Below are positions 1 to 38,504 of a stretch of DNA of 38,504 nt, piece by piece. The notes beneath the pieces were generated by a model, which saw only the letters and a list, made by a program, of their open reading frames with translations, did not search any database and was not told where the DNA came from. Each line of letters opens with the position of its first letter. Position 1 is the first letter of the stretch. Both the position numbers and the translations under genes were made by a program. This DNA comes from a virus. The DNA lies in IMG/VR virus record IMGVR_UViG_3300011977_000003, positions 1 to 38,504 of that record; one strand, 5' to 3'.

Positions 1-77
1 CTTGTCGGTGATCTGGGTCAGGGCCTTGGCGAACTTGTTCTCCGGGAACTGGACCTTGTACTTGTCGGCCACCCAGA
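1..77. repeat. Terminal direct repeat, copy 1 (circular-assembly overlap)
   Basis: Bases 1..77 match 38428..38504 exactly by direct comparison. Confidence 0.95.
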
Positions 78-1434
78 TGTAGAGCTGGGCGTCGTCGGCG
101 TCTCTCCAGTATTTGTTCGGCCGGTTCCACGGCAGCTTGCCCTTGACTTCGATCGCGCCGGAGAGTTCGTTGAAGCGGATCCCCTGGAGCGCTGGATCGT
201 TCTCCAGGATCAGCGCCGCGTTGGTGATCACCGTCCGGATGTCGCCGTTCTCGTTCCTGAGCAGTTTGAGCTTCCAGGCCTCGTCTGAGTCTTCAGGGAT
301 CTCCTCGTTCTCGAAGTCCAGGACGGCCGTGTCCTGCCGGTCTTTGTCGACCGTGTGGATCGTCTCCGGATCTTCGGAAGCGAACGCTGCCATCGCTTTG
401 TAGCTCTGGGTGTCCCGGCCGCTCTTGTCCTCGTTGCCTTCATCCAGGTGGCCGAACTTGTGGATCCGGACCAGGTCGAAGGCGTTGCAGAGCTGGCCGC
501 CTGCCGGATCCGTCGAGTGGTTCGAGTAGGCGAAGGTCTCGCCGTCGTAGATCACGAGACCGGCAGCAGTGGAGCCCGCCGCGTAGGTGTAGCGGTCGGC
601 CTTGGCCGTCTGGGTGTAGACGTCCGGCAGGAACTTCGCGATCGCCTCCGGGATCGTGTAGGTCCGGCAGAAGGCGCCGACGATGCCCTTCTTGGTCAGA
701 GGGTCGCCCTGCTTGTCGGCCTGGCGCTTCCGGATGTCCGTCATCCTGGAGGAGTACGGCCAGAAGCTCGTGTCCGTCCAGTCCGGGTACTCGGCCAGGA
801 CGCTGTCGGCCTTTAGGAAGGGCGCGTCGTAGTACTTGAAGAACGGCTCGACGCCGGTGCTGTTGCTCGGCCAGTACATGAGGCGCGTCGGCTGGAAGGT
901 CGAGTCGTCGAAGTAGTCGATGCCGATCTTCTCGGCGATCTTCCTGGCGATCGCTTCGTATTCATCCGGAGAGACCTCGCGGTCGAGCGGCATGATCAGA
1001 CGGTAGCGCGGCGTGGCCTTCGAGTGCTTGTGCGTCGAGTAGACCGCCATGGCTCCGGTGATCTCCAGGTTGTTCATGAGGTTGTCCCAGAAGTCGGCAG
1101 GAGGGAAGTCCAGGTCCAGGGTGAGGATCTGACGGGCGAGGACGTAGCCGGTCTTCCGGCGTCCTTCCTTCAAGTGTCCGCCGACGAAGCCGCCGATGTC
1201 CTTGATCCGGTCCTGCTGCTCCTTTGACATTTTCATGTACTCGGCGTGGGTCTCCGGAGTCTCCACGGACTTCGAGAGCTTCAGCAGCAGGGCGGACCAG
1301 TAGATGGTCTTGTTCTTCCAGGCTGTCTCGAAGCGGCTCTTGCCGGTAGAGATCAGGAGCTCGCCGTTGTTCTGTATCTGTAGATGGTGGTCGGCGAGGC
1401 GTAGGACCTCGGCCGTGTTTGCTTTATTTGTCAT
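1..1434 (-). CDS. DNA primase/helicase, N-terminal part (primase-like domain); continues across the circular junction into 37378..38504
   Basis: This ORF is not in the track because it runs off the window edge. My translation from the ATG at 1434 reads MTNKANTAEVLRLADHHLQIQNNGELLISTGKSRFETAWKNK...RPNKYWRDADDAQLYIWVADKYKVQ with no stop. The last residues equal the start of ORF 37378..38499. The frame arithmetic is exact: 1357 + 1127 nt = 828 codons. The start overlaps the upstream stop by 11 nt. Confidence 0.85.
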   Translation of the reverse strand, partial: MTNKANTAEVLRLADHHLQIQNNGELLISTGKSRFETAWKNKTIYWSALLLKLSKSVETPETHAEYMKMSKEQQDRIKDIGGFVGGHLKEGRRKTGYVLARQILTLDLDFPPADFWDNLMNNLEITGAMAVYSTHKHSKATPRYRLIMPLDREVSPDEYEAIARKIAEKIGIDYFDDSTFQPTRLMYWPSNSTGVEPFFKYYDAPFLKADSVLAEYPDWTDTSFWPYSSRMTDIRKRQADKQGDPLTKKGIVGAFCRTYTIPEAIAKFLPDVYTQTAKADRYTYAAGSTAAGLVIYDGETFAYSNHSTDPAGGQLCNAFDLVRIHKFGHLDEGNEDKSGRDTQSYKAMAAFASEDPETIHTVDKDRQDTAVLDFENEEIPEDSDEAWKLKLLRNENGDIRTVITNAALILENDPALQGIRFNELSGAIEVKGKLPWNRPNKYWRDADDAQLYIWVADKYKVQFPENKFAKALTQITDK

Positions 1435-1915
1435 AATCCGCGACCTCCGCGTTCTTCTTCAGCCTGTTGGCCCGGTTCTCAGCGCTGACGAACTCCCGCT
1501 GGTAGTCACGGTAGGAGGCGAGCGCGTCGCGCTGCCTTTGCTTCAGGTCCTTCAGCTTGGCCTTCAGTTCTTTGAGCCGCTCCCGGTAGGCCCGGCCCTC
1601 TTTGGTCTTGCAGTACTCAGCCAGGCGCTCGATCTGGCCGGTGAGCTTGTCGATCTCCGGCTGCATCTCTGTCGCCCTGGTGTGTTGCTCCACGGCCTTG
1701 TTGGCCAGGTCTCTCCGGCCGTCCAGGAGGGCAGAGGCGCGTTGACCGCAGTGCTGGACGATGATGGCCCGCAGCTCGTCCCGGTGTTCATAGTCTTCGT
1801 CGACCAGTTTGAGCAGCTTCCGGAGTCGGGTTGCGTCGGTCGGGAAGAACTTGTCCAGCACGATGGTCGTGTGGCCCCTGCCTTCGTTGAATGTAAAAGA
1901 GATAATATTCTCCAT
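1424..1915 (-). CDS. Hypothetical coiled-coil protein (replication module)
   Basis: 163-aa ORF. The RBS aaggagg lies 5 nt upstream of the ATG at 1915. The C-terminal half is charged and heptad-like. No family recognised. Confidence 0.7.
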   Translation of the reverse strand: MENIISFTFNEGRGHTTIVLDKFFPTDATRLRKLLKLVDEDYEHRDELRAIIVQHCGQRASALLDGRRDLANKAVEQHTRATEMQPEIDKLTGQIERLAEYCKTKEGRAYRERLKELKAKLKDLKQRQRDALASYRDYQREFVSAENRANRLKKNAEVADYDK

Positions 1916-1948: not shown

Positions 1949-1969
1949 CCGGGGGCGCAGGGCCCCCGG
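1949..1969 (-). promoter_or_regulatory. GC hairpin downstream of VR2 (putative DGR target-recognition cruciform)
   Basis: Stem ccgggggc (1949-1956) pairs with gcccccgg (1962-1969) around a 5-nt loop. On the minus strand it starts 9 nt after the stop of ORF 1979..2548. There is no T-run, so it is not a canonical terminator. Confidence 0.65.
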
Positions 1970-1978
1970 GATTTATGA

Positions 1979-2548
1979 TCAGTTGATAAGGAAAGCCGGG
2001 CGGACGCCGACGGAGTCCGAGGCGTTCCAGCCGGTGGCAAAACCGGTGACGTTGACGCGGCAGAAATGCGTCGCAGAGTCCTTTCGCTTGTTCTGGAGCC
2101 AGCCCCACTCCCAGCAGTTCTGCCGGAAGGCGATCCGGTTCTTCCGGTCCTTCATGAGCTCCCATTGCTCGCAGCCGTCCGGCTCGAAGTACTCAGCGTC
2201 CTCCTGGTCGAAGATCTCACCGAAGAACGGGATCCGGAGCAGGTCGCCGTTGTCGAACGGGACCATCCTGTCGCCCCAGTCGTCGAAGAGGTCGAGGATC
2301 TCCTTGCTCCTGAGCGTCTCCCTGAGGTCGCTCTCTTCATAGCCGCCCTTGTTGGTGTTCTTCCTGTTCATCGGGTAGGCCTCGTCGAGGTACTGATCCA
2401 GCAGGAAGAGGGCGCCCTTCGGCGTGACCGTCTGGCATGTGGCCGTATAATGGCCGACGCGGATCTGGTCGCCGGTCTGGGTCTCGGTGGTCTTGGTGAG
2501 CGTCTTCCGGTAGACGTCAATGCTGTGCATAGTCTCGAAGATTTCCAT
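1979..2548 (-). CDS. DGR target protein 2: small C-type-lectin-fold-like protein with a variable C-terminus
   Basis: 189-aa ORF with RBS aaggagg before the ATG at 2548. The C-terminus SATHFCRVNVTGFATGWNASDSVGVRPAFLIN aligns to the TR-encoded peptide, with changes only at TR Asn/A-containing codons. No N-terminal hydrophobic signal or TM segment is visible. Confidence 0.85.
   Translation of the reverse strand: MEIFETMHSIDVYRKTLTKTTETQTGDQIRVGHYTATCQTVTPKGALFLLDQYLDEAYPMNRKNTNKGGYEESDLRETLRSKEILDLFDDWGDRMVPFDNGDLLRIPFFGEIFDQEDAEYFEPDGCEQWELMKDRKNRIAFRQNCWEWGWLQNKRKDSATHFCRVNVTGFATGWNASDSVGVRPAFLIN
1991..2077 (-). repeat. DGR variable repeat 2 (VR2)
   Basis: 87-bp block aligned by hand to TR 16064..16150. 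It has 15 mismatches, and all fall at adenines of the TR coding (minus) strand. Confidence 0.85.
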
Positions 2549-2559
2549 GTGTGTCCTCC

Positions 2560-4533
2560 TTAGTCTTTCTTGTAGAAGGGCGTCTCGTAGGTGTCGCCCT
2601 TTAGTGGCAGGCCCGGCGCCCAGTCTATGGGCTGGCTCATGATGTCGTTGATCACGGCCGGGGCCTTGGTGTCTTCGTTCGGCACGTCGACGATCATCTC
2701 GTCGTGGACGTGCATCACGATCTTGTAGCCCAGCTCGCTGACCCGTGTCATGGCCACGGCCAGGCAGTCCCTCGCGGTCGCCTGGACGATGTTCTCGACC
2801 AGCTTCCCGCCGTATGTCTCAGTCTCTCCCCATTGCTTCGTCTCCTGGTTCACGCCCATGTAGACGATGTGGTCGCGGCCGTCCCTTGGGTCCAGCTTCA
2901 GCCGGGTGTCCCAGTAGCAGAGCTTCCGGCCGCTTGGCAGCTTGATGAAGAGGTTGCCGTTGATGTAGCTGAAGGCGATGCCGTGAGCGATCCGGACGGT
3001 CCGGTGCTCCTCGATCGCAGTCTTGGCAGCCAGCTCGCACGTCCTCCAGAGCTTCGGGATCTTCGGGTTGGCAGCCCTCCAGGCGTCCACGACGGCCTGA
3101 AGCTCCTCCTCCGGGATCGTTCCGCCCTTGTCCATGCGCTTCATGGCTCCAATGCCTCCCTGGTAGCCGCAGGCCAGCTCGGCGACCTTGCCCTTCTGTC
3201 TGAGGTGGCCGTTCTCGCCGTGCTTGACGACTGGCACCTTGTACATCTGGCTGGCCGTCTCGCAGTAGATGTCCTTCCCGGCCCGGAAGGCTTCCAGCCG
3301 CCACTCCTCCCCGGAGATCCAGCTGATCACCCTGGCCTCGATCGCCGCGAAGTCTGAGACGACGAAGCGGCAGCCGTCCGAAGGGATGAAGGCCGTCCGG
3401 ATCAGCTCGGAGAAGACGAAGGCCGTCTCCCCGAAGAGGGTCTGCATGGTGTCGAAGTCACCGGCAGCGGCGAGCTCCCTGGCCAGATCGAGATCCGGCA
3501 GCGAGTTCTTCGCGAGGTTGTGCGTCTGCACCAGTCGGCCAGCCCAGCGCCCGGAGCGGTTGGCTCCGTAGAACTGGAGGATCCCGCGAAGGCGGTGATC
3601 CTGGCAGACGGCCGTCAGCATCGTGCTGTATTTGGCCACGCTGGTCTTGCCGAGCGCCGTCCGGATCTCCAGCATCCTCCGGACGTTCTCCGGAAGATCT
3701 CCGGCCAGCGCTTCCGCGATGGTGTCCTTCGTGACGCTGGCCATCTCGACGCCCTGGCTGGCCAGCCATTTCTTCAGCTGGGCCAGGCTGTTCGGGTTGC
3801 TGAGGCCCGTGATGGTCTGGGCCTCTTCTTGTAGTTCCTGGCGCCGCTGGGTGTCATACTCGACGATTTTCTCGACCATCGGGATGTCCAGCTTCACGCC
3901 GTTGTCGTTCATGTGCTGATCCAGGGACCAGAGCGCCTGCTCCGCGTCCGGGATCTTGTAGACTGCCAGCCTCTTCAGGATCTCCTGCTCCGTGACGACG
4001 TCCTGCCGGTTGTACGCGATGAAGAGCTTCCACTTCTCCGGGTCGTGCGCCGGGAGGTTGCGCGTCCGCTGCCCGTTCGTCCGTGTTGGCTTGCAGGGCT
4101 TAGAGAAGAACTGGATCAGGGCCTTGCCCTGGGGGTCCTTCAGCTTGTCCTCCGGAAGGCCCAGCGCCATGCCCGCGTCTGCCAGGTTGCCCGGCAGGCC
4201 CATCGTGAGGGCCTTGATCATCGTGCAGCGCCACTCTTCCGGAGGCATGGCCGCGCCGGTCCACTTGGCCAGGCACGTCCGCTCGAAGTTCGCGTTGAAG
4301 GCTGTCTTGACGATGGACGGGTCCGTGAGCGCCTGGCGGAACTCGTAGAGCTCCTCGTCGAAGTCCCGGTCGACCGCCAGCGTGTCGATCACATGGACCT
4401 CGTCCTCGTCGTCGTACTTATAGCCGATCAGCAGGATGTCGAAGTCGGGCGCCTCCGTGTAGGCGTAGACGCCCGCCTTGGCCAGATCCACGGAGCTGTA
4501 GGTCTCGATGTCTATCCCCATTACTCTGTGCAT
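2560..4533 (-). CDS. Family A DNA polymerase with N-terminal 3'-5' exonuclease
   Basis: 657 aa. Contains GIDIETYS (Exo I DxE), DFAAIEARV (Pol A motif A-like) and MHVHDE (motif C-like). RBS aaggaggagg. Confidence 0.9.
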   Translation of the reverse strand: MHRVMGIDIETYSSVDLAKAGVYAYTEAPDFDILLIGYKYDDEDEVHVIDTLAVDRDFDEELYEFRQALTDPSIVKTAFNANFERTCLAKWTGAAMPPEEWRCTMIKALTMGLPGNLADAGMALGLPEDKLKDPQGKALIQFFSKPCKPTRTNGQRTRNLPAHDPEKWKLFIAYNRQDVVTEQEILKRLAVYKIPDAEQALWSLDQHMNDNGVKLDIPMVEKIVEYDTQRRQELQEEAQTITGLSNPNSLAQLKKWLASQGVEMASVTKDTIAEALAGDLPENVRRMLEIRTALGKTSVAKYSTMLTAVCQDHRLRGILQFYGANRSGRWAGRLVQTHNLAKNSLPDLDLARELAAAGDFDTMQTLFGETAFVFSELIRTAFIPSDGCRFVVSDFAAIEARVISWISGEEWRLEAFRAGKDIYCETASQMYKVPVVKHGENGHLRQKGKVAELACGYQGGIGAMKRMDKGGTIPEEELQAVVDAWRAANPKIPKLWRTCELAAKTAIEEHRTVRIAHGIAFSYINGNLFIKLPSGRKLCYWDTRLKLDPRDGRDHIVYMGVNQETKQWGETETYGGKLVENIVQATARDCLAVAMTRVSELGYKIVMHVHDEMIVDVPNEDTKAPAVINDIMSQPIDWAPGLPLKGDTYETPFYKKD

Positions 4534-6765: not shown

Positions 6766-7407
6766 TTACAGTTTGCCGTGCCGGTTCCTGAGCTCGAAGG
6801 TGAACTCCTGGACCAGCAGCGCATACTCGGACGGGCCTGCCTTGCCTTCGAGATAGGCGTCGGCGTTGCTGTCTCCGTTGTATGTCATCAGCACCCAGTA
6901 GGGATCCGAGTGTCTTCCGAAGAGCTCCCGGAGGTAGTCGGCCGCGACCATCATGTTCGGGCCCGCCTCCCAGATCTGGCTCTCGGTGACTCCCAGCCGC
7001 TCCATCCGGTCCGCGTGCCAGTAGGTGCTGACCTGCATCAGCCCGTAGCAGCCGCCGTTCACGGCCTGGGTGTTGTATGTGCTCTCATAGAAGGCGACGG
7101 CCTCCAGGAACTCCGGCTCGAAGCCGTAGGCCTCACCGGCTGCCTCAGCAGCGGCCTCGATCTCGTCGGGGATCTCCGGGTCGTTGTAGGGCTCCGGCTC
7201 GTAGACGAGAGGCGCTTCGGTCTCTTCTTCGATCGGCTCGGAGTAGGTGGCCAGGATCACCGGGGCCTCTTCAGATTGCAATGAGGCGGCAGCCTGGCGC
7301 TGGTACTCCGTCGCACTGTGCCAGTGTGCTGTGCCCGCCAGGGCGCCGATCATGCAGCCGATCGCCGCGCTGATCAGGTTCTCCTTCCATGTGTGTCTTC
7401 TTCTCAT
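6766..7407 (-). CDS. Membrane-anchored lytic transglycosylase (SLT domain)
   Basis: Contains AFYESTYN...GCYGLMQVS...YNGD, the Glu-Ser / GLMQ SLT signature. There is an N-terminal TM segment (LISAAIGCMIGALAG). I prefer the ATG at 7407 (RBS ggagga 5 nt upstream) over the track start at 7440. Confidence 0.8.
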   Translation of the reverse strand: MRRRHTWKENLISAAIGCMIGALAGTAHWHSATEYQRQAAASLQSEEAPVILATYSEPIEEETEAPLVYEPEPYNDPEIPDEIEAAAEAAGEAYGFEPEFLEAVAFYESTYNTQAVNGGCYGLMQVSTYWHADRMERLGVTESQIWEAGPNMMVAADYLRELFGRHSDPYWVLMTYNGDSNADAYLEGKAGPSEYALLVQEFTFELRNRHGKL

Positions 7408-7492
7408 GTGTGTCCTCCATGCTTTTCCGGATCGCGTCATAGGCAGCCATCGCCAGCATCGTAAGATCCGGAGCTTCGTTGCTTCTTGCCAT
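7271..7492 (-). CDS. Hypothetical small protein; 3' half overlaps the SLT gene out of frame
   Basis: A strong RBS gaaggagg precedes the ATG at 7492. The first ~30 aa look protein-like, while the remainder is Arg/Gly/Pro-rich and overlaps 6766..7407. The true extent is uncertain. Confidence 0.35.
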   Translation of the reverse strand: MARSNEAPDLTMLAMAAYDAIRKSMEDTHEKKTHMEGEPDQRGDRLHDRRPGGHSTLAQCDGVPAPGCRLIAI

Positions 7493-12086: not shown

Positions 12087-13649
12087 TTAGCTGAGCAGCT
12101 TGTTGACCTTGGCCTGCACCCGGGCGTAGTCATAACCGGCAGCAGTCAGGCGGGCCTTGCGGTCCGATCCGTTGCCCCACTTCCCGGCGATCACTTCCTG
12201 GGCCAGCTCGTCGATGGACTTGCTGGATCCGCTGACCAGGGCGTTGACTTTGCTCTGCACGGCGTTGTAGTCGTAGCCTGCCGCTGTGAGCCTGTCCTTG
12301 CGCTCCTGGCCATTTCCCCAGGATCCGGCCAGGACTTCCTTGGCCAGTTCGTCCACGGTCTTCTTGGCCGGTTCCGGAGCCGCCACCAGCTGATTGACGC
12401 GGGCCTGCACGGCGCTGTAGTCATAACCGGCAGCAGTCAGGCGGGCCTTGCGGTCGTCGCCGTTGCCCCAGACGCCTGCCAGGACTTCCCTGGCCAGCTC
12501 CTCGACGCTCTTCCTGGCGCTTCCGGAGCTCTTGCCGTACTTCGGCTTGGCGTAGCCCCGGATGTTCCCGTGGCCGATCTTGCGGGTGGTCCTGCCGACC
12601 ACGCCGCCGCTGATGTTGCCCTCGATCGCGGTGATCATGCCGCCGCTGACCTTCTCGACGATGCCGATGTGGTCAGAGAAGCCGTCGTTCGGCTGGGTGT
12701 TGTCGTCCCAGTTGTAGACGATCAGCCAGCCAGGCTCCGGTGTGACGGTGCCGTCCTCCTCCCAGATCCCGGCCTTCTTGAAGAGCTTCACATGCTCCTC
12801 GACGCCGCACTCCGGACCGCCGATCAGATCGACCGCGCCCAGCTTGATGAAGGCAGCCGAGACGGTAGTGTCGCAGAAGGCGTCGGTGTAGCTGACCTTG
12901 TAGCCTCTGGCCCTTGGCGTGTAGCTGTTGTAGGTGTCAATGATGACGTGGTGCGTCCCGGCCGAGCGGCTGAGCCCGATCCAGGAGCGCATGACGGCCA
13001 GCACGTCCTCAGCTGTCACGCCCTTGACCGCAGTCTCCGGAACGGTGACGGGCTTGCTGGTGTTGCGCTGAGAGCAGTCCACGTTCCCGCTGATGCCGGG
13101 CACGCTGCCCTTGCTGGTGTACTGCCAGATCAGCCAGTCGCCGCTGTAGCTGAGCTTGCTGGCCCACTGAGCGACCCACCAGGAGAACGGCAGCTGTGAA
13201 GCGTCCAGGCGGTTCTTGATCCAGCTGGTCGAAGCGTAGACTCCGGCCGGGATCCCGTTCGCCTGGAGGCGTTCGCAGATGATCCTCAGGAAGCGCGTCC
13301 GGTCGGCTCTGTTGAGCTGATCAGAGCGGCCCTTGCCGCTGCCTTCGGCGTACTCGCTGTCCAGGAAGATCGGCAGCACGAACTTCATGCCCTTGGCCTC
13401 CTGGATGATGAAGTCCGCCTCCTCGATGGCTTCTGCGTCCGTGATGGACGTCGGGAAGAAGTAGAGGGAGAAGGGGATGCCGAGAGCCTCGCAGGCGGCT
13501 CTGTTTTCCTTGTACTTCGTGTCGTAAACGATCCGGCCGTTGCCATAGCCACGGTAGCCCAGCCGGATGATGGCGGCCTCGATGCTGCCCGAGACCGCCT
13601 TCCAGTCGATCGTCCCCTGAAAAGCGGAGACGTCAATGATCGGTTTCAC
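12087..13649 (-). CDS. Modular endolysin: GH25 muramidase + CHAP/NlpC-like peptidase + 3 x CW_7 (Cpl-7) wall-binding repeats
   Basis: The N-terminal IIDVSAFQGTIDW...WQYTS is GH25. The central domain has a Cys...His pattern (AFCDTTVS...DHIGIV). The protein ends with three xELAxEVxAGxWGNGxxRKxRLTAAGYDYxxVQxKVN repeats. Confidence 0.9.
   Translation of the reverse strand: MKPIIDVSAFQGTIDWKAVSGSIEAAIIRLGYRGYGNGRIVYDTKYKENRAACEALGIPFSLYFFPTSITDAEAIEEADFIIQEAKGMKFVLPIFLDSEYAEGSGKGRSDQLNRADRTRFLRIICERLQANGIPAGVYASTSWIKNRLDASQLPFSWWVAQWASKLSYSGDWLIWQYTSKGSVPGISGNVDCSQRNTSKPVTVPETAVKGVTAEDVLAVMRSWIGLSRSAGTHHVIIDTYNSYTPRARGYKVSYTDAFCDTTVSAAFIKLGAVDLIGGPECGVEEHVKLFKKAGIWEEDGTVTPEPGWLIVYNWDDNTQPNDGFSDHIGIVEKVSGGMITAIEGNISGGVVGRTTRKIGHGNIRGYAKPKYGKSSGSARKSVEELAREVLAGVWGNGDDRKARLTAAGYDYSAVQARVNQLVAAPEPAKKTVDELAKEVLAGSWGNGQERKDRLTAAGYDYNAVQSKVNALVSGSSKSIDELAQEVIAGKWGNGSDRKARLTAAGYDYARVQAKVNKLLS
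12090..12509 (-). repeat. Three in-frame CW_7-encoding DNA repeats (about 141-150 nt period)
   Basis: Near-identical stretches such as gtagtcataaccggcagcagtcaggcgggccttgcggtc occur at about 12127 and about 12418, with a diverged middle copy. Confidence 0.8.
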
Positions 13650-14440: not shown

Positions 14441-14758
14441 TTATACCTCCTCCAGATTAATGTCGGCCATCATCGCGACGTATTCGATGTTGGCCTGGGT
14501 CTTCATCTCAGCGAGCTCCTGAGCAGTCAGGTCGCGCAGGATGAACCAGTAGTTCGCCCCGACCTTCGTGATCTGGACGAGCTCCATGTTCTCGTGGACC
14601 TCCTCGTGCTCGCCGTCGCTGATCGTCACTGTGCTGAGGTTGTCGGTGAAGACGTCCTCGGTGATCTTCTTGCTGCTGATGTAGTTGTTCCCGTTGAGGC
14701 CGAGCCCCTCCAGGGTTGTCCCATCAGCCAGCGTAATCGTCCATGTCCTTTTTTCCAT
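14441..14758 (-). CDS. Hypothetical protein (XkdW-position)
   Basis: 105-aa ORF with RBS aaaggag before the ATG at 14758. It overlaps the 3' tail of the RT ORF. Confidence 0.6.
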   Translation of the reverse strand: MEKRTWTITLADGTTLEGLGLNGNNYISSKKITEDVFTDNLSTVTISDGEHEEVHENMELVQITKVGANYWFILRDLTAQELAEMKTQANIEYVAMMADINLEEV

Positions 14759-15972
14759 GTTGGTCTCCTTTCAAACAGTTGATAGAATAGCAGGCTTAGG
14801 TTGCTGATCTGCTGGCGCGACATACGCCTCCAGTTTCCGCCCAGCCAGGACTTGAAGGAGTTCTCGATCTCCTCGTAGGTCATGGCCCCAGCTTCGAGCT
14901 TTCGCTTGTAGGCCTTCAGCTTGCGGCGCTCTCTGGTGACGCTCTTCGGGTTGATCTTTCGGATCACTCTGCCGGTCTCTGTCAGAGAGTAGCCGATCTG
15001 TAGGTAACGATAGAAGCCGGACAGCTTGCAGATCCGTGTCTTCTTTTCGTTGATGATAATGCCGTACTCCTCGGCGATCTGCTTCACGCCTTCCAGGACA
15101 GCCTGAAGGAGCTCCCTGCTGTCACTGATCACATGTGTGTCGTCGGTGTATCTGCCGAAGAGCTGGCAGCCCATCACGATCGAGATGTAGTTGTCGATCC
15201 GGTACGGGTGGATGATGCCGACGTCCTGGGAGACTTGGTTCCCTATGTCGACGCCCTTCCTGAGCATCTTCTCGCCGGTCAGTGCTCCCGGGTCCACGAA
15301 GCGGTTCATCGTCGGGTCGACCTTGCCGTGATAGAGTTCCGCGATCTCTTCATCAGAGAAGCGGGAGACATCCAGCTCGAAGGTCTTGAAGATGTCACCG
15401 ATCAGCTCCATGGCCACGTCCGCGACGTCTGGATCCTGTTCCCTTCGGATGAAGTAGTCGAGGGTGGCGAGGATCGGCGTGTGCCGTATGTTGCCATAGT
15501 AGCCGGAGAAGTCGATGAAAAGCACCCAGCCGTCATTGCTGCCGGTCTTCATGTAATAGTGGTGCAGATCTTCCTCGAAGTGTCTCCGGTGGAAGCTGAC
15601 GCCCTTGCCCTTCTGGCTCGCGCTGTTGGTATAGGCCAGATATTTGTGGATCGACGGGCTGATCACTTCATCGCATAGCAGATGATTGACCGCCTTGTCT
15701 CTCATGATGTTGCTGGTGATGTACCGGCTGTGGCCCCGCTCATTGATCGGGAACTTCGCGCCGGGTGCCGGTTTGTAGGTGCCGTGCATGATCTCGTCCT
15801 GGATCTTCGCCGTCTGGAGCAGCTGGGTCATTTCATACAGTTGGGTCTTGTACTTGAAGCGGCCGCCCTTCATGGCCTTGGTGCCTGCCTCATAGATCAG
15901 GTTTGCATCATACAATTTGTTCATAAAAATTAACCACGCAATAGTGACAGCGGTCGTAACCGGCCACGTCAT
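14626..15972 (-). CDS. DGR reverse transcriptase
   Basis: Contains FIDFSGYYGNI (motif A), DIGNQVSQ (the DGR-specific GxxxSQ motif) and GRYTDD (YxDD). It lies directly downstream of the TR. The start may be the ATG at 15924 (MNKLYDANLIY) rather than 15972, and neither has a clear SD. The last ~44 aa are low complexity and overlap the next gene. Confidence 0.9.
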   Translation of the reverse strand: MTWPVTTAVTIAWLIFMNKLYDANLIYEAGTKAMKGGRFKYKTQLYEMTQLLQTAKIQDEIMHGTYKPAPGAKFPINERGHSRYITSNIMRDKAVNHLLCDEVISPSIHKYLAYTNSASQKGKGVSFHRRHFEEDLHHYYMKTGSNDGWVLFIDFSGYYGNIRHTPILATLDYFIRREQDPDVADVAMELIGDIFKTFELDVSRFSDEEIAELYHGKVDPTMNRFVDPGALTGEKMLRKGVDIGNQVSQDVGIIHPYRIDNYISIVMGCQLFGRYTDDTHVISDSRELLQAVLEGVKQIAEEYGIIINEKKTRICKLSGFYRYLQIGYSLTETGRVIRKINPKSVTRERRKLKAYKRKLEAGAMTYEEIENSFKSWLGGNWRRMSRQQISNLSLLFYQLFERRPTWKKGHGRLRWLMGQPWRGSASTGTTTSAARRSPRTSSPTTSAQ

Positions 15973-16063: not shown

Positions 16064-16156
16064 GAAATCCGGGCGGACGCCGATGGAGTTCGAGGCGTTC
16101 CAGTTGTTGGCATTACCGTTGTTGTTGACGTTGCAGAAATTCGTCGCTGACTGAAC
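16064..16156 (-). repeat. DGR template repeat (TR)
   Basis: 93 bp located between the avd-like stop (16167) and the RT. On the minus strand it encodes VQSATNFCNVNNNGNANNWNASNSIGVRPDF with 10 AAC/AAT codons. It matches VR1 and VR2 except at its adenines. Confidence 0.9.
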
Positions 16157-16166
16157 ATAACAAGAG

Positions 16167-16715
16167 TTACCCGGTGGTGTTGCGCTTTGGTCCTTTCAAA
16201 TACTTCTTAAAACGGTTGTCAGACTGCCGCAGGCTCTTGATTGTTTTGAACAGGTGCTCGATCTCCAGCACGATGCTGGTGTATTTGTTTTTATCTGCCG
16301 GAAGGACCTCTGCTATGTATTGCAGCTCGTCCTGGAGCATATTGCAGCACTCCATCGCTTTGTCCCACTGTAGACGTCTTTCCTCGAACTCTGGCCAGTA
16401 TTCCGGCCAGATCGTGTTCGCCGCTCTCATGTGGACGCTGATGTCCTGGCAGAAGGTGAGCACCCTGGTCCGTTCCTGCTGGATGAACCAGAGATTGAAG
16501 TCTTCCTCCTGTTCGCGGATCCTTTTGGCCAGCTCCTCCCGCTCTCCATCGTCCACGACATAGGCGGTCACGGCCTTGATGTGCTTCTCGAAGCGTTTCT
16601 GGCTGTAACCGAAGGTAGCCATCAGCTCGGCAGTGATCCGTTTTCTGATGTTGTAGACCAGGTGCTGAGCGCGGAGTGGTGACTCCGAGCGCTCGCTCTT
16701 TGGGATGTCTGACAT
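16167..16715 (-). CDS. avd: Avd-like DGR accessory protein (helical, basic C-terminus)
   Basis: 182-aa ORF in the canonical position between the target gene and the TR. The sequence looks predominantly helical, with a basic tail (RFKKYLKGPKRN). The assignment rests on synteny plus weak motif resemblance. Confidence 0.6.
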   Translation of the reverse strand: MSDIPKSERSESPLRAQHLVYNIRKRITAELMATFGYSQKRFEKHIKAVTAYVVDDGEREELAKRIREQEEDFNLWFIQQERTRVLTFCQDISVHMRAANTIWPEYWPEFEERRLQWDKAMECCNMLQDELQYIAEVLPADKNKYTSIVLEIEHLFKTIKSLRQSDNRFKKYLKGPKRNTTG

Positions 16716-16736: not shown

Positions 16737-16757
16737 CCCGGGCCACGAGGGCCCGGG
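16737..16757 (-). promoter_or_regulatory. GC hairpin downstream of VR1 (putative DGR target-recognition cruciform)
   Basis: Stem cccgggcc (16737-16744) pairs with ggcccggg (16750-16757) around a 5-nt loop. On the minus strand it starts 9 nt after the target stop. No T-run. Confidence 0.65.
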
Positions 16758-16766
16758 GATTGTTGA

Positions 16767-17738
16767 TCAATAGATCAGGAAAGCCGGGCGGACGCCGATG
16801 GAGAGCGAGGCGCCCCAGGCGTCGGCACCACCGTTGTGGTCGACGTTGCAGAAAAGCGTCGCTGACTGAACATCACGGAGCCACCAGTTCTGTCTGTTGC
16901 AGATCAGATCCGGACGCGCCTGGAAAAGCGCGAGCTGAGTCTTGTCTGCCCCGGTGTCGTAGCCGTTCTGAGCGCCCCCGCCCCAGGCGTGGGATCCGTA
17001 GACCATGTGCTCGTTCATGAGGTCGATCTGGCTATCCTGCCATGCCCAGCCGGAGCTCGCGCCGTTGGAGACGGCGTTGGCCAGCAGGACACGGTGGCTG
17101 AGGATGTGATTCGCTCCAAAGTCCGCCTTGACCGTGGCCAGAGCATCGGCCAGGCCGCTCGTCTTCATCTTGCTGCCGAAGTAGGAGCCGGTCGTGACGT
17201 TGGTGTCATTCATGACGCCGTTGTAAAGAGCTTTGTCCGGGAAGACCAGCATGTGGTGGGTGGTCAGCTCTGTGTCTCCGCAGTGGAGACGATAGTCAGC
17301 ATGAGCCGCCCAGTACTTCCGGCCGTTAATCGTCCAGTAGCCTCCGACGCGGACCTTGTCGAACCTGCCCGCTCTGATGTCAGCGGACTGCTCATCTGTG
17401 AAGCTGGTACCAAGATCATGCTCGAAGGGCATGGCGTTGGCGCGGGTCGCTCCGTCCGTTTCGAGGGCTTTGATCAGGCCCTCGATCGTCTCAATGCTGA
17501 GGGCGTTTTCTTCGGTTTTGCCGAAGATCTCATTGATCGCTCCGATCAGGCTGTCCTTGTCCTCCGTTTCGAGTGTGGCCAGATCTCCGCCGATGAAAGT
17601 CTTCAGGGCTGAGAGAGGCAGGGCCTTGACGCCGGTGCCGTCTGCCAGTCTGACGAGGACGATGTCCGCGCCGCTGGAGACCGCGCTGATCGCGGGCTCC
17701 TCGTTGAAGCGTCTGCCGTTTTCAATGTCAATCTGCAT
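16767..17738 (-). CDS. DGR target protein 1: tail-fibre/receptor-binding protein with a C-type-lectin-fold-like variable C-terminus
   Basis: 323 aa and the last gene of the tail module. The C-terminus VQSATLFCNVDHNGGADAWGASLSIGVRPAFLIY aligns to the TR-encoded peptide, with changes only at Asn/A-containing codons. Confidence 0.85.
   Translation of the reverse strand: MQIDIENGRRFNEEPAISAVSSGADIVLVRLADGTGVKALPLSALKTFIGGDLATLETEDKDSLIGAINEIFGKTEENALSIETIEGLIKALETDGATRANAMPFEHDLGTSFTDEQSADIRAGRFDKVRVGGYWTINGRKYWAAHADYRLHCGDTELTTHHMLVFPDKALYNGVMNDTNVTTGSYFGSKMKTSGLADALATVKADFGANHILSHRVLLANAVSNGASSGWAWQDSQIDLMNEHMVYGSHAWGGGAQNGYDTGADKTQLALFQARPDLICNRQNWWLRDVQSATLFCNVDHNGGADAWGASLSIGVRPAFLIY
16779..16871 (-). 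repeat. DGR variable repeat 1 (VR1)
   Basis: 93-bp block at a constant offset of 715 from the TR. It has 14 mismatches, and all fall at adenines of the TR coding strand. Confidence 0.9.
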
Positions 17739-31836: not shown

Positions 31837-33207
31837 TCAGATTGTTCCCTCCGCTTCTTCGATTGTTTCCTCCTCTTTTTCCTGCACCGGGAGGTAGTGC
31901 TTCAGCTTCGACCAGAGGCCCATCACCAGGTAGCGGATCGCGTCCATGCAGTGGTCGTTCTCCTTGACCGGCTTCTCCTGGCCTCGCTCGATGCTTTTCT
32001 TGTCGTATTCATAGAGCCCGAACTCGCGCCGGGCGTTCTCCTGCTTCGGGGAGATCGTGAGCATCCCGAAGGTGAGGAGCTTCTGCACCCTGGAGATCCC
32101 CAGGGCGACGTCGTTCTGTGCGTCCCGGAGCCGGACGCTGTAGCCGCAGCCCCGGACCGCTCGCTTGATCTCCTCCGCCAGGCCCGCAGCAGACGGGTCG
32201 ATGAAGACGTAGAAGCTGTTGCAGCTGTACTCCTCGTGGAGATCGTCCAGGAAGGCCACGAAGTCCTCCGCGTACTTGCTGGGGCTCTTCTGTGTCCCGG
32301 ACTCTCTGCCGCTGTGATAGTACTCCGCCAGGCCCTCCAGCCGGTGCTTGGTCATGTTGAGACCGGCCGCCTGGTAGGTGGTGGCGTTCTGCTGGCCATA
32401 GTCGACGCCCACGCCGATCAGCGGGAAGGCCTCCTCCTTCGTCCTGGCGACGTTCTTGCCGCCGAACATGTAGTAGATCAGCTCGTCCACGCCGATCGAG
32501 AGGCCCAGCCAGAGCCAGCGCCACTGGCGCTCGTCGATCTGCCTGAGGATCTCAGCCGACTCCAGGAGCTTCCGGCCGATCCAGGCCTCCGGCACGTCTC
32601 TGTAGTCCACATGGACGTGGATGCAGTCGGGGCGCTGCTCCATCTTGCGGGTCCACTGGACGACCGGAGCGTTCGGGTTCTTGGGCGGGTTATAGAGGTA
32701 GAGCATCTGGAAGCCTTCGTCGTTGCCTCGGATGAAGGTCGCCTCGATGTTCTGGAGCTCGTCCTCGCCTTCGCCCTGCTCGAAGAACTCGTTCACCTCG
32801 TCGATCATGACCAGCTTGATCGGCTTGCTCTCGTCGATGATGCCCTTGGTGTCGTCGATATTGTCGGAGCCGGTGAAGTAGATCGTGTTCCCGTTCTCCA
32901 GGAACGTGACCTCCATCGGGCTCACGGTGATCTTAAAGAGGCGCTCGTCGAGGCCCAGCCTCTTGATCGCTCTCTTGATCTCTTTGTATACGGTCTTCCG
33001 GAGCTTGTTGTGCCTCTTCCGGATGACGACGGCGCTCCCGTCGACGTCCTGCACGATCTTGAAGACCGTCTCGATCGCTGCCTCTGAGGACTTCGTCCCG
33101 GCTCGGCCAGAGGTGAGGATCTTGTGGGTGTGTTCCTCGTCGTTGAACACGTCCCAGAACTTAGGAATGATCAGGTCACTGATCCGGATCTCGTTGCTTT
33201 GTGTCAT
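31837..33207 (-). CDS. terL: Terminase large subunit (PBSX/XtmB-like)
   Basis: 456 aa. Contains the Walker A-like motif SGRAGTKSS and the acidic nuclease C-terminal half, and it precedes the portal gene. Confidence 0.9.
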   Translation of the reverse strand: MTQSNEIRISDLIIPKFWDVFNDEEHTHKILTSGRAGTKSSEAAIETVFKIVQDVDGSAVVIRKRHNKLRKTVYKEIKRAIKRLGLDERLFKITVSPMEVTFLENGNTIYFTGSDNIDDTKGIIDESKPIKLVMIDEVNEFFEQGEGEDELQNIEATFIRGNDEGFQMLYLYNPPKNPNAPVVQWTRKMEQRPDCIHVHVDYRDVPEAWIGRKLLESAEILRQIDERQWRWLWLGLSIGVDELIYYMFGGKNVARTKEEAFPLIGVGVDYGQQNATTYQAAGLNMTKHRLEGLAEYYHSGRESGTQKSPSKYAEDFVAFLDDLHEEYSCNSFYVFIDPSAAGLAEEIKRAVRGCGYSVRLRDAQNDVALGISRVQKLLTFGMLTISPKQENARREFGLYEYDKKSIERGQEKPVKENDHCMDAIRYLVMGLWSKLKHYLPVQEKEEETIEEAEGTI

Positions 33208-33874
33208 TGATAATAGTCACCCTCCGGATCTCACCGGTGCCGCTGCCGAGCTTGGAGCGCAGAAGTTCGAGCCGGAGCTTCTGTTCCTCGGTGGCGGTCT
33301 CGCCGCGTTCTTGCAGCATCTCGGTGTATTGCTTGATCAAGCCCCTGAGGGTGTCCATCGCCCGGGCCTGGGCCTTCATGAAGTTGGCCTGCTTGTCCCA
33401 GGCCTGCTGCACTTCCCAGCGCTCGCCGATGACGTTCCCGTCCTTCTCCTCGATCCGTTCGATCGTCTTGTCCTGCTGGCCCTTGACGTAGGCGATCTTC
33501 TGGGCCCTCACGATGGCCGTGTAGGAGAAGCGGATCTGGTCCCAGAGAAGATCCAGCGGATCGGCCTCCGCGATCTCTCCGAAGATCTCCAGCGTCTCCT
33601 CCGGCAGGTATTTGTTGTAGAAGCCGAACTTCTCGGCCCTCCTGTTTCCTTTTGGCGCCGCTCGGTTGCGGTTGCCAGGCTGTCCGCCTCGTTTCCGAGC
33701 GCTCGTTTTCTTTTCCGAGCGTTCGCTTTTCTTACCGTCCCAGTCATGGGTGCATTTCCATCGGCGGACCGTTCCCTCTGGGACTTCGAGCTGCCTGGCT
33801 ATTTCCACGAGTTTGAGGCCCTGTTTATATAAAGCCAGGGCCTCGTCCGCCTTCGCGTTCTTCGCCCTTGGCAC
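33176..33874 (-). CDS. terS: Terminase small subunit with an N-terminal HTH
   Basis: I prefer the GTG at 33874, which lies 4 nt after gaggaggtga. This gives VPRAKNAKADEALALYKQGLKLVEIARQLEVPEGTVRRWK. The track start at 33955 would include a terminator-like hairpin. Confidence 0.8.
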   Translation of the reverse strand: MPRAKNAKADEALALYKQGLKLVEIARQLEVPEGTVRRWKCTHDWDGKKSERSEKKTSARKRGGQPGNRNRAAPKGNRRAEKFGFYNKYLPEETLEIFGEIAEADPLDLLWDQIRFSYTAIVRAQKIAYVKGQQDKTIERIEEKDGNVIGERWEVQQAWDKQANFMKAQARAMDTLRGLIKQYTEMLQERGETATEEQKLRLELLRSKLGSGTGEIRRVTIINDTKQRDPDQ

Positions 33875-33913
33875 GACCTCACCTCCTCGCTGTATTCGGT
33901 GTTTTGGACAACG

Positions 33914-33943
33914 GAAAAGAGCAGGCGACTCTTCGCCTGCTCT
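33914..33943 (-). terminator. Terminator-like hairpin upstream of terS
   Basis: The 10-bp stem agagcaggcg (33918-27) pairs with cgcctgctct (33934-43). On the minus strand it is followed by TTTTCC. It lies 56 nt after the regulator gene stop. Confidence 0.5.
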
Positions 33944-33998
33944 CACTCGTTTCACGTTACCATAATATCACGTTCGTTTTTGCAATGTTTGCCGACTT

Positions 33999-34421
33999 TT
34001 AATTCCCGCCCAGCGCCTCCCCCAGATGTAGGACGCCCTGCTTCCGGAAGTAGTACGTCCTCCGGACGCTGTAGTTGATGATCTCAGCCACCTGGGCCAT
34101 CGGCACCCGGCCGATGTAGAACTCGGCCAGGACGGTCTTCTCGTTGTCATCCTCCAGCTGCTCGATGGCGTCGCCGATCTCGATGATCAGCAGGGCCTTC
34201 TCCTCCTGGAGCTGCTCGATCTGGTCCTCCAGATCGGCCACTTTGCAGATGATCTCGCTGACCTTGTCGACCGGAGACGTCTGCACCCGGTCGCGGTCGT
34301 ATTGGATCGCCCTGGCGCCGAGGCAGCTCCTCAACTCCTCACACCTCAGCTGCTTCCTCTTGATGGCGTACTCCTTCTTGCGGATCTGCATCAGATAGTC
34401 AAAAGTGTTTTGTAGGTCCAT
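33999..34421 (-). CDS. Sigma-70 region-4-like late transcription regulator (ArpU/RinA/DUF1492-type position)
   Basis: 140 aa. The C-terminal LAEFYIGRVPMAQVAEIINYSVRRTYYFRKQG is HTH-like. It lies immediately upstream of the packaging genes. Confidence 0.6.
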   Translation of the reverse strand: MDLQNTFDYLMQIRKKEYAIKRKQLRCEELRSCLGARAIQYDRDRVQTSPVDKVSEIICKVADLEDQIEQLQEEKALLIIEIGDAIEQLEDDNEKTVLAEFYIGRVPMAQVAEIINYSVRRTYYFRKQGVLHLGEALGGN

Positions 34422-37133: not shown

Positions 37134-37406
37134 GGTGGTAACGAGCGCCGCGATTTTTTCCTATAATGCGCGTATTCGCCCTCGCGGGTGCCCGTTTTCG
37201 CGTGTGTACGGTATATTTTTAATAATCTATATAAAATCCTTGTTACCTCGTTACCATTACGCCGTCAGCCTTGCTGTTGCTGGCTTTTAGGTGGTAACGA
37301 GTAGGGTAACAAGTGTGGTAACGTGCGGCTGCTTGTTACCATTAGCCGCCGTTGCAGGTGGTAACGAGGGCCCCTCGTTACCGGCCCCCCTCGTTACCGT
37401 TACCAC
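37134..37406. repeat. Iteron cluster with an AT-rich spacer: putative replication origin
   Basis: GGTGGTAACGAG occurs at 37134, 37290 and 37357. Its complement CTCGTTACC occurs at 37247, 37374 and 37390. Additional GGTAAC/GTTACC cores occur at 37242, 37305, 37317, 37334 and 37399. An AT-rich stretch spans 37211-37240. Confidence 0.55.
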
Positions 37407-38504
37407 TTCGGCGGACGAAGACTCTCTGCTTGCCCAGATCCTTGATCCTCATGGTCGCGTTCGCGGGTCTTTCCCACTCCGGCAGCCTGGCCATGATGCT
37501 CGCGATCTCGTCGCCGTCGCGCCTTGTCCATTGGTTCTGGATCTTGCCGAAGCACTCGCAGAAGATCTCCATCGCGCTGACCTTTGTCCGCTGCATGGTG
37601 CCCACCTGCTGCTTCGGATCCAGGACGTCGCGCTGGCTGAAGTAGTCCTTGCGCTTGCCGAGGTCCCAGCTGTACCAGTCCTCCGGCAGCAGGGTGTCGA
37701 GGTAGTCGATCACCTGGCCCTCACGTTCGTCATACATGAGCGCCGCCTGCTGGGCCTTGGCCGCTTCCTTCTCCATCTCTGCATCCAGGAAGCTGTCCTC
37801 GCCCTCGGTGGCGTACATGGCCGCCTCGGCCCAGATCTGTGCCCTGGTGGCCTCTGTCATCTCCCAGACAGAGAGGCGGCCTCCGCCATCGACCGAGACG
37901 GGCCAGAAGCGCCGGTTGCCGGTGGCGTCCCTCAGGAAGCCGGTGGTGCTGTTGGTCGTTCCGCAGATGATCGCGGTCCTCGGGTGCCTCTCGACCACGC
38001 GGCCGTAGGCTGCCCGGTACTCGTCCACCTGCCGGGAGAGGAAGCCCTTCATCACGTCGATGTCAGCCTTCCGGGTTCCCTGCATCTCGCCGATCTCCAT
38101 GATCCAGACGCCCTGGAGCTTCTCGGCCGCCGTCTTGTCCCTGGTGTCTGCCAGGCTCAGGCTGTCGCTGAACCACTTGCCGCCCAGCTTCCGGAGCAGG
38201 GTGCTCTTGCCGATGCCCGGCTTCCCGTCGAGGACCAGCACGGTGTCGAATTTGCAGCCGGGCTCCCATACACGCTGAACCGCGCCGATCAGGGTCTTCC
38301 TCGTGACGGCCCGGACGTAGGGCGTGTCCTCCGCGCCCAGGTAGTCCACCAGCAGGGTGTCCACCCTCGGCACGCCGTCCCACTCCGGCAGCTGCCGTAT
38401 GTAGTCCCGCAGCGGATTGAAGCGCCGCTTGTCGGTGATCTGGGTCAGGGCCTTGGCGAACTTGTTCTCCGGGAACTGGACCTTGTACTTGTCGGCCACC
38501 CAGA
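37378..38504 (-). CDS. DNA primase/helicase, C-terminal part (VirE-family P-loop NTPase); continuation of 1..1434
   Basis: Contains the Walker A motif GKPGIGKST and the Walker B-like motif WIMEIGEM. The M at 38499 in the track is an internal GTG (Val), because the frame stays open to the window end and joins 1..1434. Confidence 0.85.
   Translation of the reverse strand, partial: WVADKYKVQFPENKFAKALTQITDKRRFNPLRDYIRQLPEWDGVPRVDTLLVDYLGAEDTPYVRAVTRKTLIGAVQRVWEPGCKFDTVLVLDGKPGIGKSTLLRKLGGKWFSDSLSLADTRDKTAAEKLQGVWIMEIGEMQGTRKADIDVMKGFLSRQVDEYRAAYGRVVERHPRTAIICGTTNSTTGFLRDATGNRRFWPVSVDGGGRLSVWEMTEATRAQIWAEAAMYATEGEDSFLDAEMEKEAAKAQQAALMYDEREGQVIDYLDTLLPEDWYSWDLGKRKDYFSQRDVLDPKQQVGTMQRTKVSAMEIFCECFGKIQNQWTRRDGDEIASIMARLPEWERPANATMRIKDLGKQRVFVRRSGNGNEGGR
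38428..38504. repeat. Terminal direct repeat, copy 2 (circular-assembly overlap)
   Basis: Exact 77-bp match to 1..77. It lies inside a coding frame that continues through the junction. Confidence 0.95.

Follow-up and report, generated by a model that had tools for sequence, protein, structure and literature searches.

A remote second target of a phage diversity-generating retroelement: a small DUF6273 gene in the replication operon

Introduction

Can a small gene in the replication operon of a phage be a target of the phage's diversity-generating retroelement (DGR) and, if it is, what would its variable product do? The locus that raises this question is an open reading frame (ORF) of 189 amino acids (aa), located on the minus strand at 1979..2548 of IMG/VR virus record IMGVR_UViG_3300011977_000003. 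All 38,504 nucleotides (nt) of this record, here called the window, were analyzed. An earlier note on this DNA had described the end of the ORF as a second DGR variable repeat (VR), copied from a template repeat (TR) far away in the genome. Phage DGRs are understood almost wholly as tail-fibre re-targeting devices, the founding DGR being that of Bordetella phage BPP-1 (mtd-avd-TR-brt). The largest DGR survey states that remote targets could not be detected (PMC8144416).

The source phage is a temperate siphovirus of Oscillospiraceae with one DGR, related to Acutalibacter phage Fontainebleau. Fontainebleau (ON453893.1) is also its nearest deposited phage, with 84% identity across one third of the query. 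The best explanation of the observations as a whole is that the ORF is a remote second DGR target, a replication-operon gene that encodes a soluble lectin-like domain. We give this reading a probability of about 0.8.

Mismatches between the repeats and the template

The repeats and the genes that carry them are the following.

1979..2548, minus strand: second DGR target gene, 189 aa, a stand-alone DUF6273 protein; its ribosome-binding site (RBS), GGAGG, abuts the stop codon of the family A DNA polymerase (PolA) gene
1991..2077, minus strand: VR2, the last 87 nt of the target ORF, codons 158-186
16064..16161, minus strand: TR; VR2 is templated by 16064..16150, VR1 by all 98 nt
16779..16876, minus strand: VR1, the 3′ end of a 323-aa tail-fibre-like target gene (16767..17738)

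Compared without gaps on the coding (minus) strand, the repeats gave the alignment that the earlier note had reported. VR2 (1991..2077) matched TR (16064..16150) over 87 nt at an offset of 14,073 bp, and all of the 15 mismatches (15/15) were on TR adenines. As only 24 of the 87 nt in this TR block are adenines, 15 random positions would all hit an adenine with a hypergeometric P of ~5e-11. Every codon change listed in the earlier note was found, and the C-terminal peptide, ...SATHFCRVNVTGFATGWNASDSVGVRPAFLIN, was as claimed. Mismatches at other bases inside the block would mean ordinary paralogy, and none were found in the VR2 block. The TR homology of VR2 stops at 2077, with non-A mismatches at 2078 and 2080 just beyond the block. 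VR2 is a second, remote VR of the phage's single TR.

In the same 87-nt block, VR1 differs from TR by 14 mismatches, also at A sites. TR reads AAT or AAC at ten codons of the shared frame and ATC at one, and these are the A-bearing codons at which the residues of VR1 and VR2 differ from each other. Because the two repeats differ at the same AAY codons, each was diversified independently, and here too the earlier note was right. One of the 15 mismatches of VR2, the A-to-C change at 1995, recurred in VR1 and in all VRs of 13 related genomes. Its universality in VRs marks it as a fixed difference between VR and TR, of the type that distinguishes the initiation of mutagenic homing (IMH) sequence from IMH*, and leaves 14 mismatches as mutagenesis.

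The RBS, the Pfam DUF6273 match and the >1,100 homologues indicate that the 189-aa ORF is real. The earlier note had placed its RBS 11 nt after the polymerase stop. The distance of 11 nt is correct for the gap between the PolA stop codon and the ATG (TAA-GGAGGACACAC-ATG); the RBS itself directly abuts the stop.

The adenine bias was not limited to the window. In Fontainebleau, the orthologue WAK78934.1 has its own VR2, and 15/15 mismatches to the phage's own TR are at TR adenines. We also scanned IMG/VR for the 3′ end of TR and paired TR and VR2 loci by contig name, which gave 13 further genomes. In these 13 related genomes, 168/169 mismatches between VR2 and TR are at template adenines.

Without any DGR action, the alternatives are paralogy to the tail-fibre tip, a chimeric assembly or a repeat that arose by chance, and they would account for the bare existence of a repeat and nothing more. 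Mismatches limited to template adenines in the window and 14 other genomes speak against all three, as does the finding of the locus in many independent assemblies and in the genome of an isolated phage. Moreover, the small protein resembles the 323-aa VR1 protein only in its last 61 aa and has no BLASTP similarity to it elsewhere, which excludes ordinary paralogy with the tail-fibre protein. Explanations of this kind are hardly credible.

Variation among orthologues and populations

Among 113 orthologues, an entropy of 2.9-3.6 bits was reached only at aa 161, 164, 166, 167, 168, 170, 172, 173, 175, 178 and 180. These hypervariable columns are the 11 A-bearing codons. Each of them showed 12-16 different residues, and the residues between them were invariant. 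Similarly, the sequences within 90%-identity clusters (1,220, 302 and 62 distinct sequences) differed almost only in aa 160-180. Near-identical phages have flanks that are 99% identical around a VR that is 76-83% identical. At the level of orthologues and clusters, this pattern fits a repeat that is still being diversified in phage populations. TR was nearly invariant across relatives. Thus, orthologues vary almost only at the codons templated by TR adenines, which was the check that the earlier note had suggested. The homologue loci consisted of ±10 kb around the gene, and TR was found there only where the whole genome was covered; searches for loci with single proteins reach close relatives only.

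Very close relatives seem to carry two different template alleles. In the window, Cys163 and Trp174 are fixed (codons at 2060-2062 and 2027-2029), and the other allele has Ala163 and a hypervariable codon 174 (seen via loci L141, L003 and L007 and protein clusters P0006 and P0004). The Cys163/Trp174 and Ala163/variable-174 states co-vary, which suggests an exchange of DGR cassettes or TRs between phages; the alleles are deduced from the target proteins.

Some ORFs of 81-84 aa have been called over TR itself (MTLDIVQSATNFCNVNNNGNANNWNASNSIGVRPDF...). They share the 90% protein cluster of the target (P0086; P0121-P0123, P0126, P0130, P0134) and vary little across many contigs. They are a database artefact and could mislead cluster-based analyses.

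The retroelement cassette and the signals at VR2

The cassette lies at the end of the tail module. In the order of transcription, the genes are Dit, Tal, a fibre-like protein, the VR1 target, a 182-aa ORF, TR, the reverse transcriptase (RT), holin and endolysin. The VR1 target protein of 323 aa has a weak tail-fibre PHROG match in its N-terminal part, plus DUF6273.

14626..15972, minus strand: DGR RT, directly downstream of TR; Pfam RVT_1, E 1e-12; IGNQVSQ and YTDD motifs in the translation
16167..16715, minus strand: 182-aa accessory ORF in the position of Avd, between VR1 and TR; 90% identity to its Fontainebleau counterpart; conserved in relatives

We take the IGNQVSQ and YTDD motifs to be typical of DGR RTs. 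The 182-aa accessory protein had no Pfam match (E up to 1), no PHROG match and no BLASTP similarity to the Avd of phage FP_Toutatis. Every DGR hallmark that was looked for was found, except a recognisable Avd.

The 3′ end of the RT ORF may be overextended. It overlaps the next ORF (14441..14758) by ~130 nt (14626-14758), the last ~55 residues are rich in R, S and T and look like out-of-frame read-through, and the annotated RT of Fontainebleau is ~100 aa shorter.

Downstream of the variable codons, the following elements were found.

1996..2008, minus strand: GC-rich element GGCGTCCGCCCGG in the 3′-terminal part of VR2; TR (16069..16081) and VR1 (16784..16796) carry exactly this sequence
1970..1995, minus strand: IMH-like segment CTTTCCTTATCAACTGATCATAAAT, which resembles the VR1 segment and is unlike the TR segment (ATTTCACAACCGTG...)
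1949..1969, minus strand: GC hairpin of VR2 with an 8-bp stem and a 5-nt loop, ~25 nt after the GC-rich element
16737..16757, minus strand: GC hairpin of VR1, the counterpart of 1949..1969 at the same spacing; z -3.5

The position of the GC-rich element corresponds to that of the GC-rich part of IMH in the BPP-1 model. In the 25 nt that follow it, VR1 and VR2 are alike and TR is different. The core of the hairpin showed compensatory double changes in 6/6 pairs among 19 diverse relatives. We presume that 1949..1969 is the target-recognition hairpin, and we infer that the IMH-like and GC-rich elements may work as cis signals at VR2. The VR2 hairpin was also considered as a terminator. This was rejected, as it has no T-run on the coding strand and the sole terminator-like call is on the opposite strand.

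If the BPP-1 paradigm holds here, the TR RNA would be reverse-transcribed with adenine-specific errors, and the complementary DNA would replace VR1 or VR2 independently, guided by IMH and the hairpin. No stop codons arise in this way because the variable codons are AAY or ATC. As bacterial DGRs with multiple targets are known, the distance between TR and VR2 is no obstacle.

BPP-1 and the window have in common a TR/VR pair with adenine-only changes, AAY codons and a lectin-fold target whose gene has the VR at its 3′ end. In both, a GC-rich element is present, the IMH-type end of VR is unlike that of TR, and a GC hairpin lies downstream of VR, with an accessory gene between target and TR and the RT downstream. 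However, BPP-1 has one adjacent target, a tail-fibre tip, whereas here there are two, the second being 14 kb away in the replication operon. This second target is a bare domain without an N-terminal part like that of Mtd, and the accessory protein lacks a match to Avd.

The flanks of VR1 and VR2 are ~75% identical past the stop codon, over 150 nt that include the hairpin (repeat family D5), and the remainder of both genes is unrelated. This might mean that the end of an early gene received a copied cassette of VR, IMH and hairpin, and that homing is tolerated there without being useful. We regard such a by-stander as very improbable. The arrangement is kept across PolA divergence to ~50%, and >1,100 homologues have intact ORFs. 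The scaffold between the variable codons is invariant, and VR2 is in the AAY codon frame of TR. In addition, the whole-domain homologues are all DUF6273, so the variable hairpin is integral to the fold.

The protein

The target protein (189 aa, 22 kDa) has a pI of 4.9, a mean hydropathy (GRAVY) of -0.71 and a maximum 19-residue hydropathy of 0.6. No hydrophobic stretch fit for a signal peptide or a transmembrane segment was found in the hydropathy profile, which bears out what the earlier note had said. Pfam DUF6273 (PF19789) matched aa 111-188 only, with 26.4 bits against a cut-off of 23.5. A full-length match (E 3e-35) was obtained with phrog_21980, to which PHROGs assigns no function.

An AlphaFold2 model based on a diverse alignment of 91 sequences showed a single globular domain, with a mean per-residue confidence (pLDDT) of 86.5 and a predicted template modelling score (pTM) of 0.84. 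A first model from 52 close homologues had a pLDDT of 51.5 and was unusable. In the better model, the variable codons make up a beta-hairpin (161-175) plus the loop after it. The best Foldseek match in the PDB was the DUF6273 N-terminal domain of 9qa6, a Thomasclavelia IgA peptidase (E 1.3e-3, template modelling (TM) score 0.56). Classical C-type lectin domains were matched at non-significant scores only, and Mtd was not among the Foldseek matches of the model. BFVD gave ~20 matches, mostly DUF6273 proteins, with E down to 2e-8 and TM scores of 0.6-0.73; these include stand-alone proteins with lengths of 160-210 aa as well as large fibre or receptor-binding proteins (RBPs). A profile sequence search of the PDB (E up to 10) found nothing. 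The lectin-like fold that the earlier note had proposed is thus the DUF6273 fold, in the model as in the structure matches.

Two possible leads from the protein itself were dropped. The paper on the IgA peptidase offers no transferable function for its DUF6273 N-terminal domain. A conserved disulfide, which would be an extracellular sign, was rejected: Cys38 is the sole invariant cysteine, Cys126 lacks conservation in a distant group (A2), and some clusters have Ala in place of Cys163.

The family comprises >1,100 close sequences and 1,148 clusters at 50% identity, most of them 170-200 aa long. Its hosts are Oscillospiraceae and Lachnospiraceae (among them Roseburia, Blautia, Dorea, Bilifractor and Porcincola), and it is widespread in prophages of both. 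The DUF6273 domain family is also found in tail fibres, RBPs and one 3,973-aa multi-repeat protein. Fusions within the family join the domain to the PUA-like DUF3850 (in either order), to a zinc-ribbon-like segment, to DUF6275 or to DUF6353, and none of them has a secretion signal. In one locus (L010, 10001-10867; P0119, 288 aa), the N-terminal part of the domain is partially duplicated in tandem, with a degenerate second C-terminus.

Genomic context

The genes that bear on the position of the target are listed below.

2560..4533, minus strand: PolA, directly upstream of the target gene; Pfam DNA_pol_A, E 2e-22
1424..1915, minus strand: 163-aa coiled-coil ORF between the target gene and VapE; its last 11 nt overlap the start of VapE; syntenic in relatives
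1..1434, minus strand: 5′ part of the VapE-type primase/helicase (827 aa); Pfam VapE-like_dom, E 3e-75; continues at 38427..37378
37378..38427, minus strand: 3′ part of the VapE-type primase/helicase, on the other side of the circular junction
33999..34421, minus strand: gene of a DUF1492 protein (ArpU/RinA-like regulator), followed directly by the small terminase gene (33176..33955)

Bases 1-77 of the window are an exact repeat of 38428-38504. This 77-nt terminal repeat shows that the window is a complete genome of 38,427 bp, either circular or terminally redundant. The VapE ORF was overlooked by the ORF lister because it crosses the circular junction. Most genes are on the minus strand, and the whole genome is co-oriented except for the lysogeny module.

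The replication operon is transcribed in the order DUF2800 nuclease, Enc34-type single-stranded DNA-binding protein, PolA, target ORF (1979..2548), 163-aa coiled-coil ORF and VapE. Pfam matches confirmed the place given in the earlier note, between a family A polymerase and a VapE primase/helicase, with the 163-aa ORF preceding VapE. Beyond VapE in transcription are an HNH gene, an SNF2 helicase, DUF4406, the DUF1492 regulator and the terminase genes. DUF1492 proteins are late activators, and the late operon likely begins at the DUF1492 gene, which follows the target gene in the direction of transcription. No minus-strand promoter-like site was found between ~9900 and the target gene, and the sole minus-strand terminator-like match in this interval is inside the VR.

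This position is widely kept. PolA is directly upstream and VapE downstream in ~45/68 IMG/VR loci plus several genome loci, and the Fontainebleau orthologue has the same PolA-X-coiled-coil-VapE position. The adjacency to PolA is kept in ~60 loci, even where PolA identity is ~50%. Other backbones also place the target gene among small early genes and regulators. A 1,421-aa primase-polymerase is directly upstream in one locus (L061), and a primase is 2.4 kb upstream in another (L014). In L006, the small terminase gene is ~2 kb downstream, so the target gene is at the end of the early region. An integrase lies a few kilobases from the target gene in L045 and L016. In Lachnospiraceae prophages, the neighbours include a methylase, DUF6353 proteins and a DUF5906 primase.

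We compared 133 non-redundant immediate neighbours from 52 loci with PHROGs. The 25 commonest families were of unknown function, transcriptional regulators or repressors, and a few hydrolases, with no tail or head family among them; 32 other families had single matches. In ~110 loci examined, which cover several unrelated backbones, no structural gene adjoins the target. Therefore, the statement of the earlier note that the gene is not in the tail module holds for the replication operon of the window and for the related loci examined.

A second gene with a DUF6273-type C-terminus was observed in Lachnospiraceae prophages (L053, L058, L144, L146, L151, L153, L155, L159, L160, L162-L165, L170). 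The distance between the two genes is mostly ~2 kb, within the early region. Both genes terminate, in the majority of these prophages, in a VR-like scaffold with a GC hairpin (CTTGT loop) behind it, and TR is outside the ±10 kb.

One role that could be imagined for such a gene is lysogenic conversion, in which the prophage would express and export (e.g. in vesicles) a variable lectin that serves the bacterial host. A DGR-diversified DUF6273 tentaclin of a Faecalibacterium prophage has been reported to be expressed by lysogens and to occur in extracellular vesicles (bioRxiv 10.64898/2026.05.08.723808), and the present family is widespread in Oscillospiraceae and Lachnospiraceae prophages. However, the gene is deep in a lytic replication operon without a promoter-like site of its own, and not at a prophage end, the usual place of morons. 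The protein also lacks a secretion signal. Lysogenic conversion is therefore quite improbable here.

Possible roles of the small protein

If the gene is expressed as its position suggests, the target protein would be made with the replication genes and would serve as a variable binding module within the infected cell rather than as part of the virion. Its ligand could be a host factor that differs between strains, either a defence protein or a component associated with replication or nucleic acids. For this phage, the intracellular variable binder is the reading that we prefer, at roughly even odds. It is supported by the gene context on unrelated backbones, by the lack of any anchoring or secretion feature and by the independence of VR1 and VR2. 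Early expression, a cytoplasmic location and a function beyond tropism had been suggested in the earlier note; they are still to be read as suggestions from gene position, strengthened by the synteny and the neighbour analysis. A wider version can be put forward only tentatively: that the stand-alone, DGR-diversified lectin-like family of Oscillospiraceae and Lachnospiraceae phages as a whole might be an intracellular early protein, re-aimed after entry at variable host factors.

Several points weigh against the remote-target explanation or its intracellular form. The accessory protein is not recognisably Avd and may be a divergent or a different accessory factor. Only one of the five AlphaFold2 models was confident. 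The fold is uninformative on the compartment, since DUF6273 occurs in fibres, RBPs and a multi-repeat protein. The fusion partners are also neighbouring genes of the family, which makes them weak evidence of a functional link, and the fusions may be read-through. Timing and compartment are deduced from gene order alone, in a genome that is nearly all co-oriented. Finally, analogous small targets have been interpreted in the literature as receptor-binding proteins (PMC10743442; bioRxiv 10.1101/2024.10.15.618418).

The last point leads to the strongest competing interpretation, that the gene is a genuine DGR target and its product an adhesin. The protein would then be an Mtd-like tip, a virion decoration or a binder released at lysis, whose gene just happens to lie elsewhere than in the tail module. 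The variable domain of the VR1 protein and of many tail-fibre, receptor-binding and tentaclin proteins is DUF6273, and VR2 has the scaffold and beta-hairpin of VR1. Lectin-fold DGR targets of known function, such as Mtd, bind surface ligands, and small DUF6273 second targets are taken as RBPs in the published work. On the other hand, this protein has no anchoring or trimerisation domain and is fibre-like only in its last 61 aa. The gene is tightly packed in the replication operon, and structural genes are absent from its immediate neighbourhood in the ~110 loci on several unrelated backbones. As VR1 and VR2 diversify independently, a role that needs a specificity matched to the fibre is unlikely. 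We consider an adhesin a possibility of real weight, though short of even chances.

Similar small targets in other phages

Small DUF6273 second targets have already been published, and the present case is not unprecedented. Phage FP_Toutatis of Faecalibacterium has gp24, a small protein of 215 aa with only DUF6273 and a C-terminal VR (bioRxiv 10.1101/2024.10.15.618418). Like the target described here, gp24 is remote from TR (17,480 nt) and belongs to the core genome, where it is among early genes upstream of a replication-initiation gene. Unlike the source phage, FP_Toutatis is a myovirus, gp24 is not adjacent to a polymerase, and its VR1 target is a Hoc-like tentaclin. We found no BLASTP similarity between gp24 and the target protein beyond a GVRPA motif. 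The authors of that study propose receptor binding for gp24 (bioRxiv 10.1101/2024.10.15.618418).

The Faecalibacterium prophages Lelie and CP11 (PMC11792537) and tgt2 of the gut phages nd4/nd12 (PMC10743442) are further examples with one TR and both a large and a small DUF6273 target. As here, the VR is at the C-terminus of DUF6273, in a surface beta-hairpin, and both VRs vary across cognate genomes. However, these are other phage lineages, and tgt2 of nd4/nd12 is described as part of the cassette, with no discussion of where it stands relative to replication genes.

The Fontainebleau protein WAK78934.1 is a true orthologue (189 aa, 69% identical) and is annotated as a hypothetical protein. 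A DGR is not mentioned in the paper describing Fontainebleau.

Among bacteria, the DGRs of Treponema denticola and Legionella are reported to have one TR and several VRs at a distance (PMC5758913, PMC4891356). For multicellular bacteria, lectin-fold variable domains inside the cell are described as putative antigen sensors (PMC10907252). These multi-target or intracellular DGRs differ from the present one in being cellular, with surface lipoproteins or large STAND/NLR-like proteins as targets. The second target here is a 22-kDa stand-alone domain in a phage replication operon.

Three things are new in the present case. A target of this kind had not previously been described in this phage lineage, the synteny of polymerase, target and primase is broadly conserved, and the small-target family appears in non-structural regions across the backbones examined. 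Several unrelated phage backbones thus keep members of a large family of small variable proteins beside polymerases, primases and early regulators. If these proteins act inside the cell, phages would run an antibody-like diversification against intracellular host variation, and phage DGR function would extend from adsorption tropism to post-entry host range or anti-defence. This would bear on anti-defence biology, host-range prediction and binder engineering. If they are adhesins instead, structural or host-binding functions can hide in replication operons, and DGR surveys restricted to the proximity of the RT miss a recurrent class of targets. Fontainebleau has a cultivable host (Acutalibacter muris KB18, OMM12). 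The phage in this strain is a model that makes the question directly testable.

Other observations on the genome

Rfam and tRNA scans of the window gave no match. The tape-measure gene contains tandem 132-nt repeat units over ~660 nt (21274-21933). Three repeats of ~131 nt in the endolysin gene (12096-12517) are probably cell-wall-binding modules. A protein with an SLT lytic-transglycosylase domain (6766-7440) is encoded in the early operon, distant from the lysis genes; it has a hydrophobic N-terminal stretch and is conserved in relatives.

A near-identical phage genome, L141 (contig JBGUOB010000098.1, 38,091 bp), has 96-100% protein identity over the genes compared. Its place in a 'Candidatus Cryptobacteroides' rumen metagenome-assembled genome is almost certainly a binning error for a phage contig. 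L141 and the RUG rumen genomes together point to a rumen or gut origin of the phage in the window.

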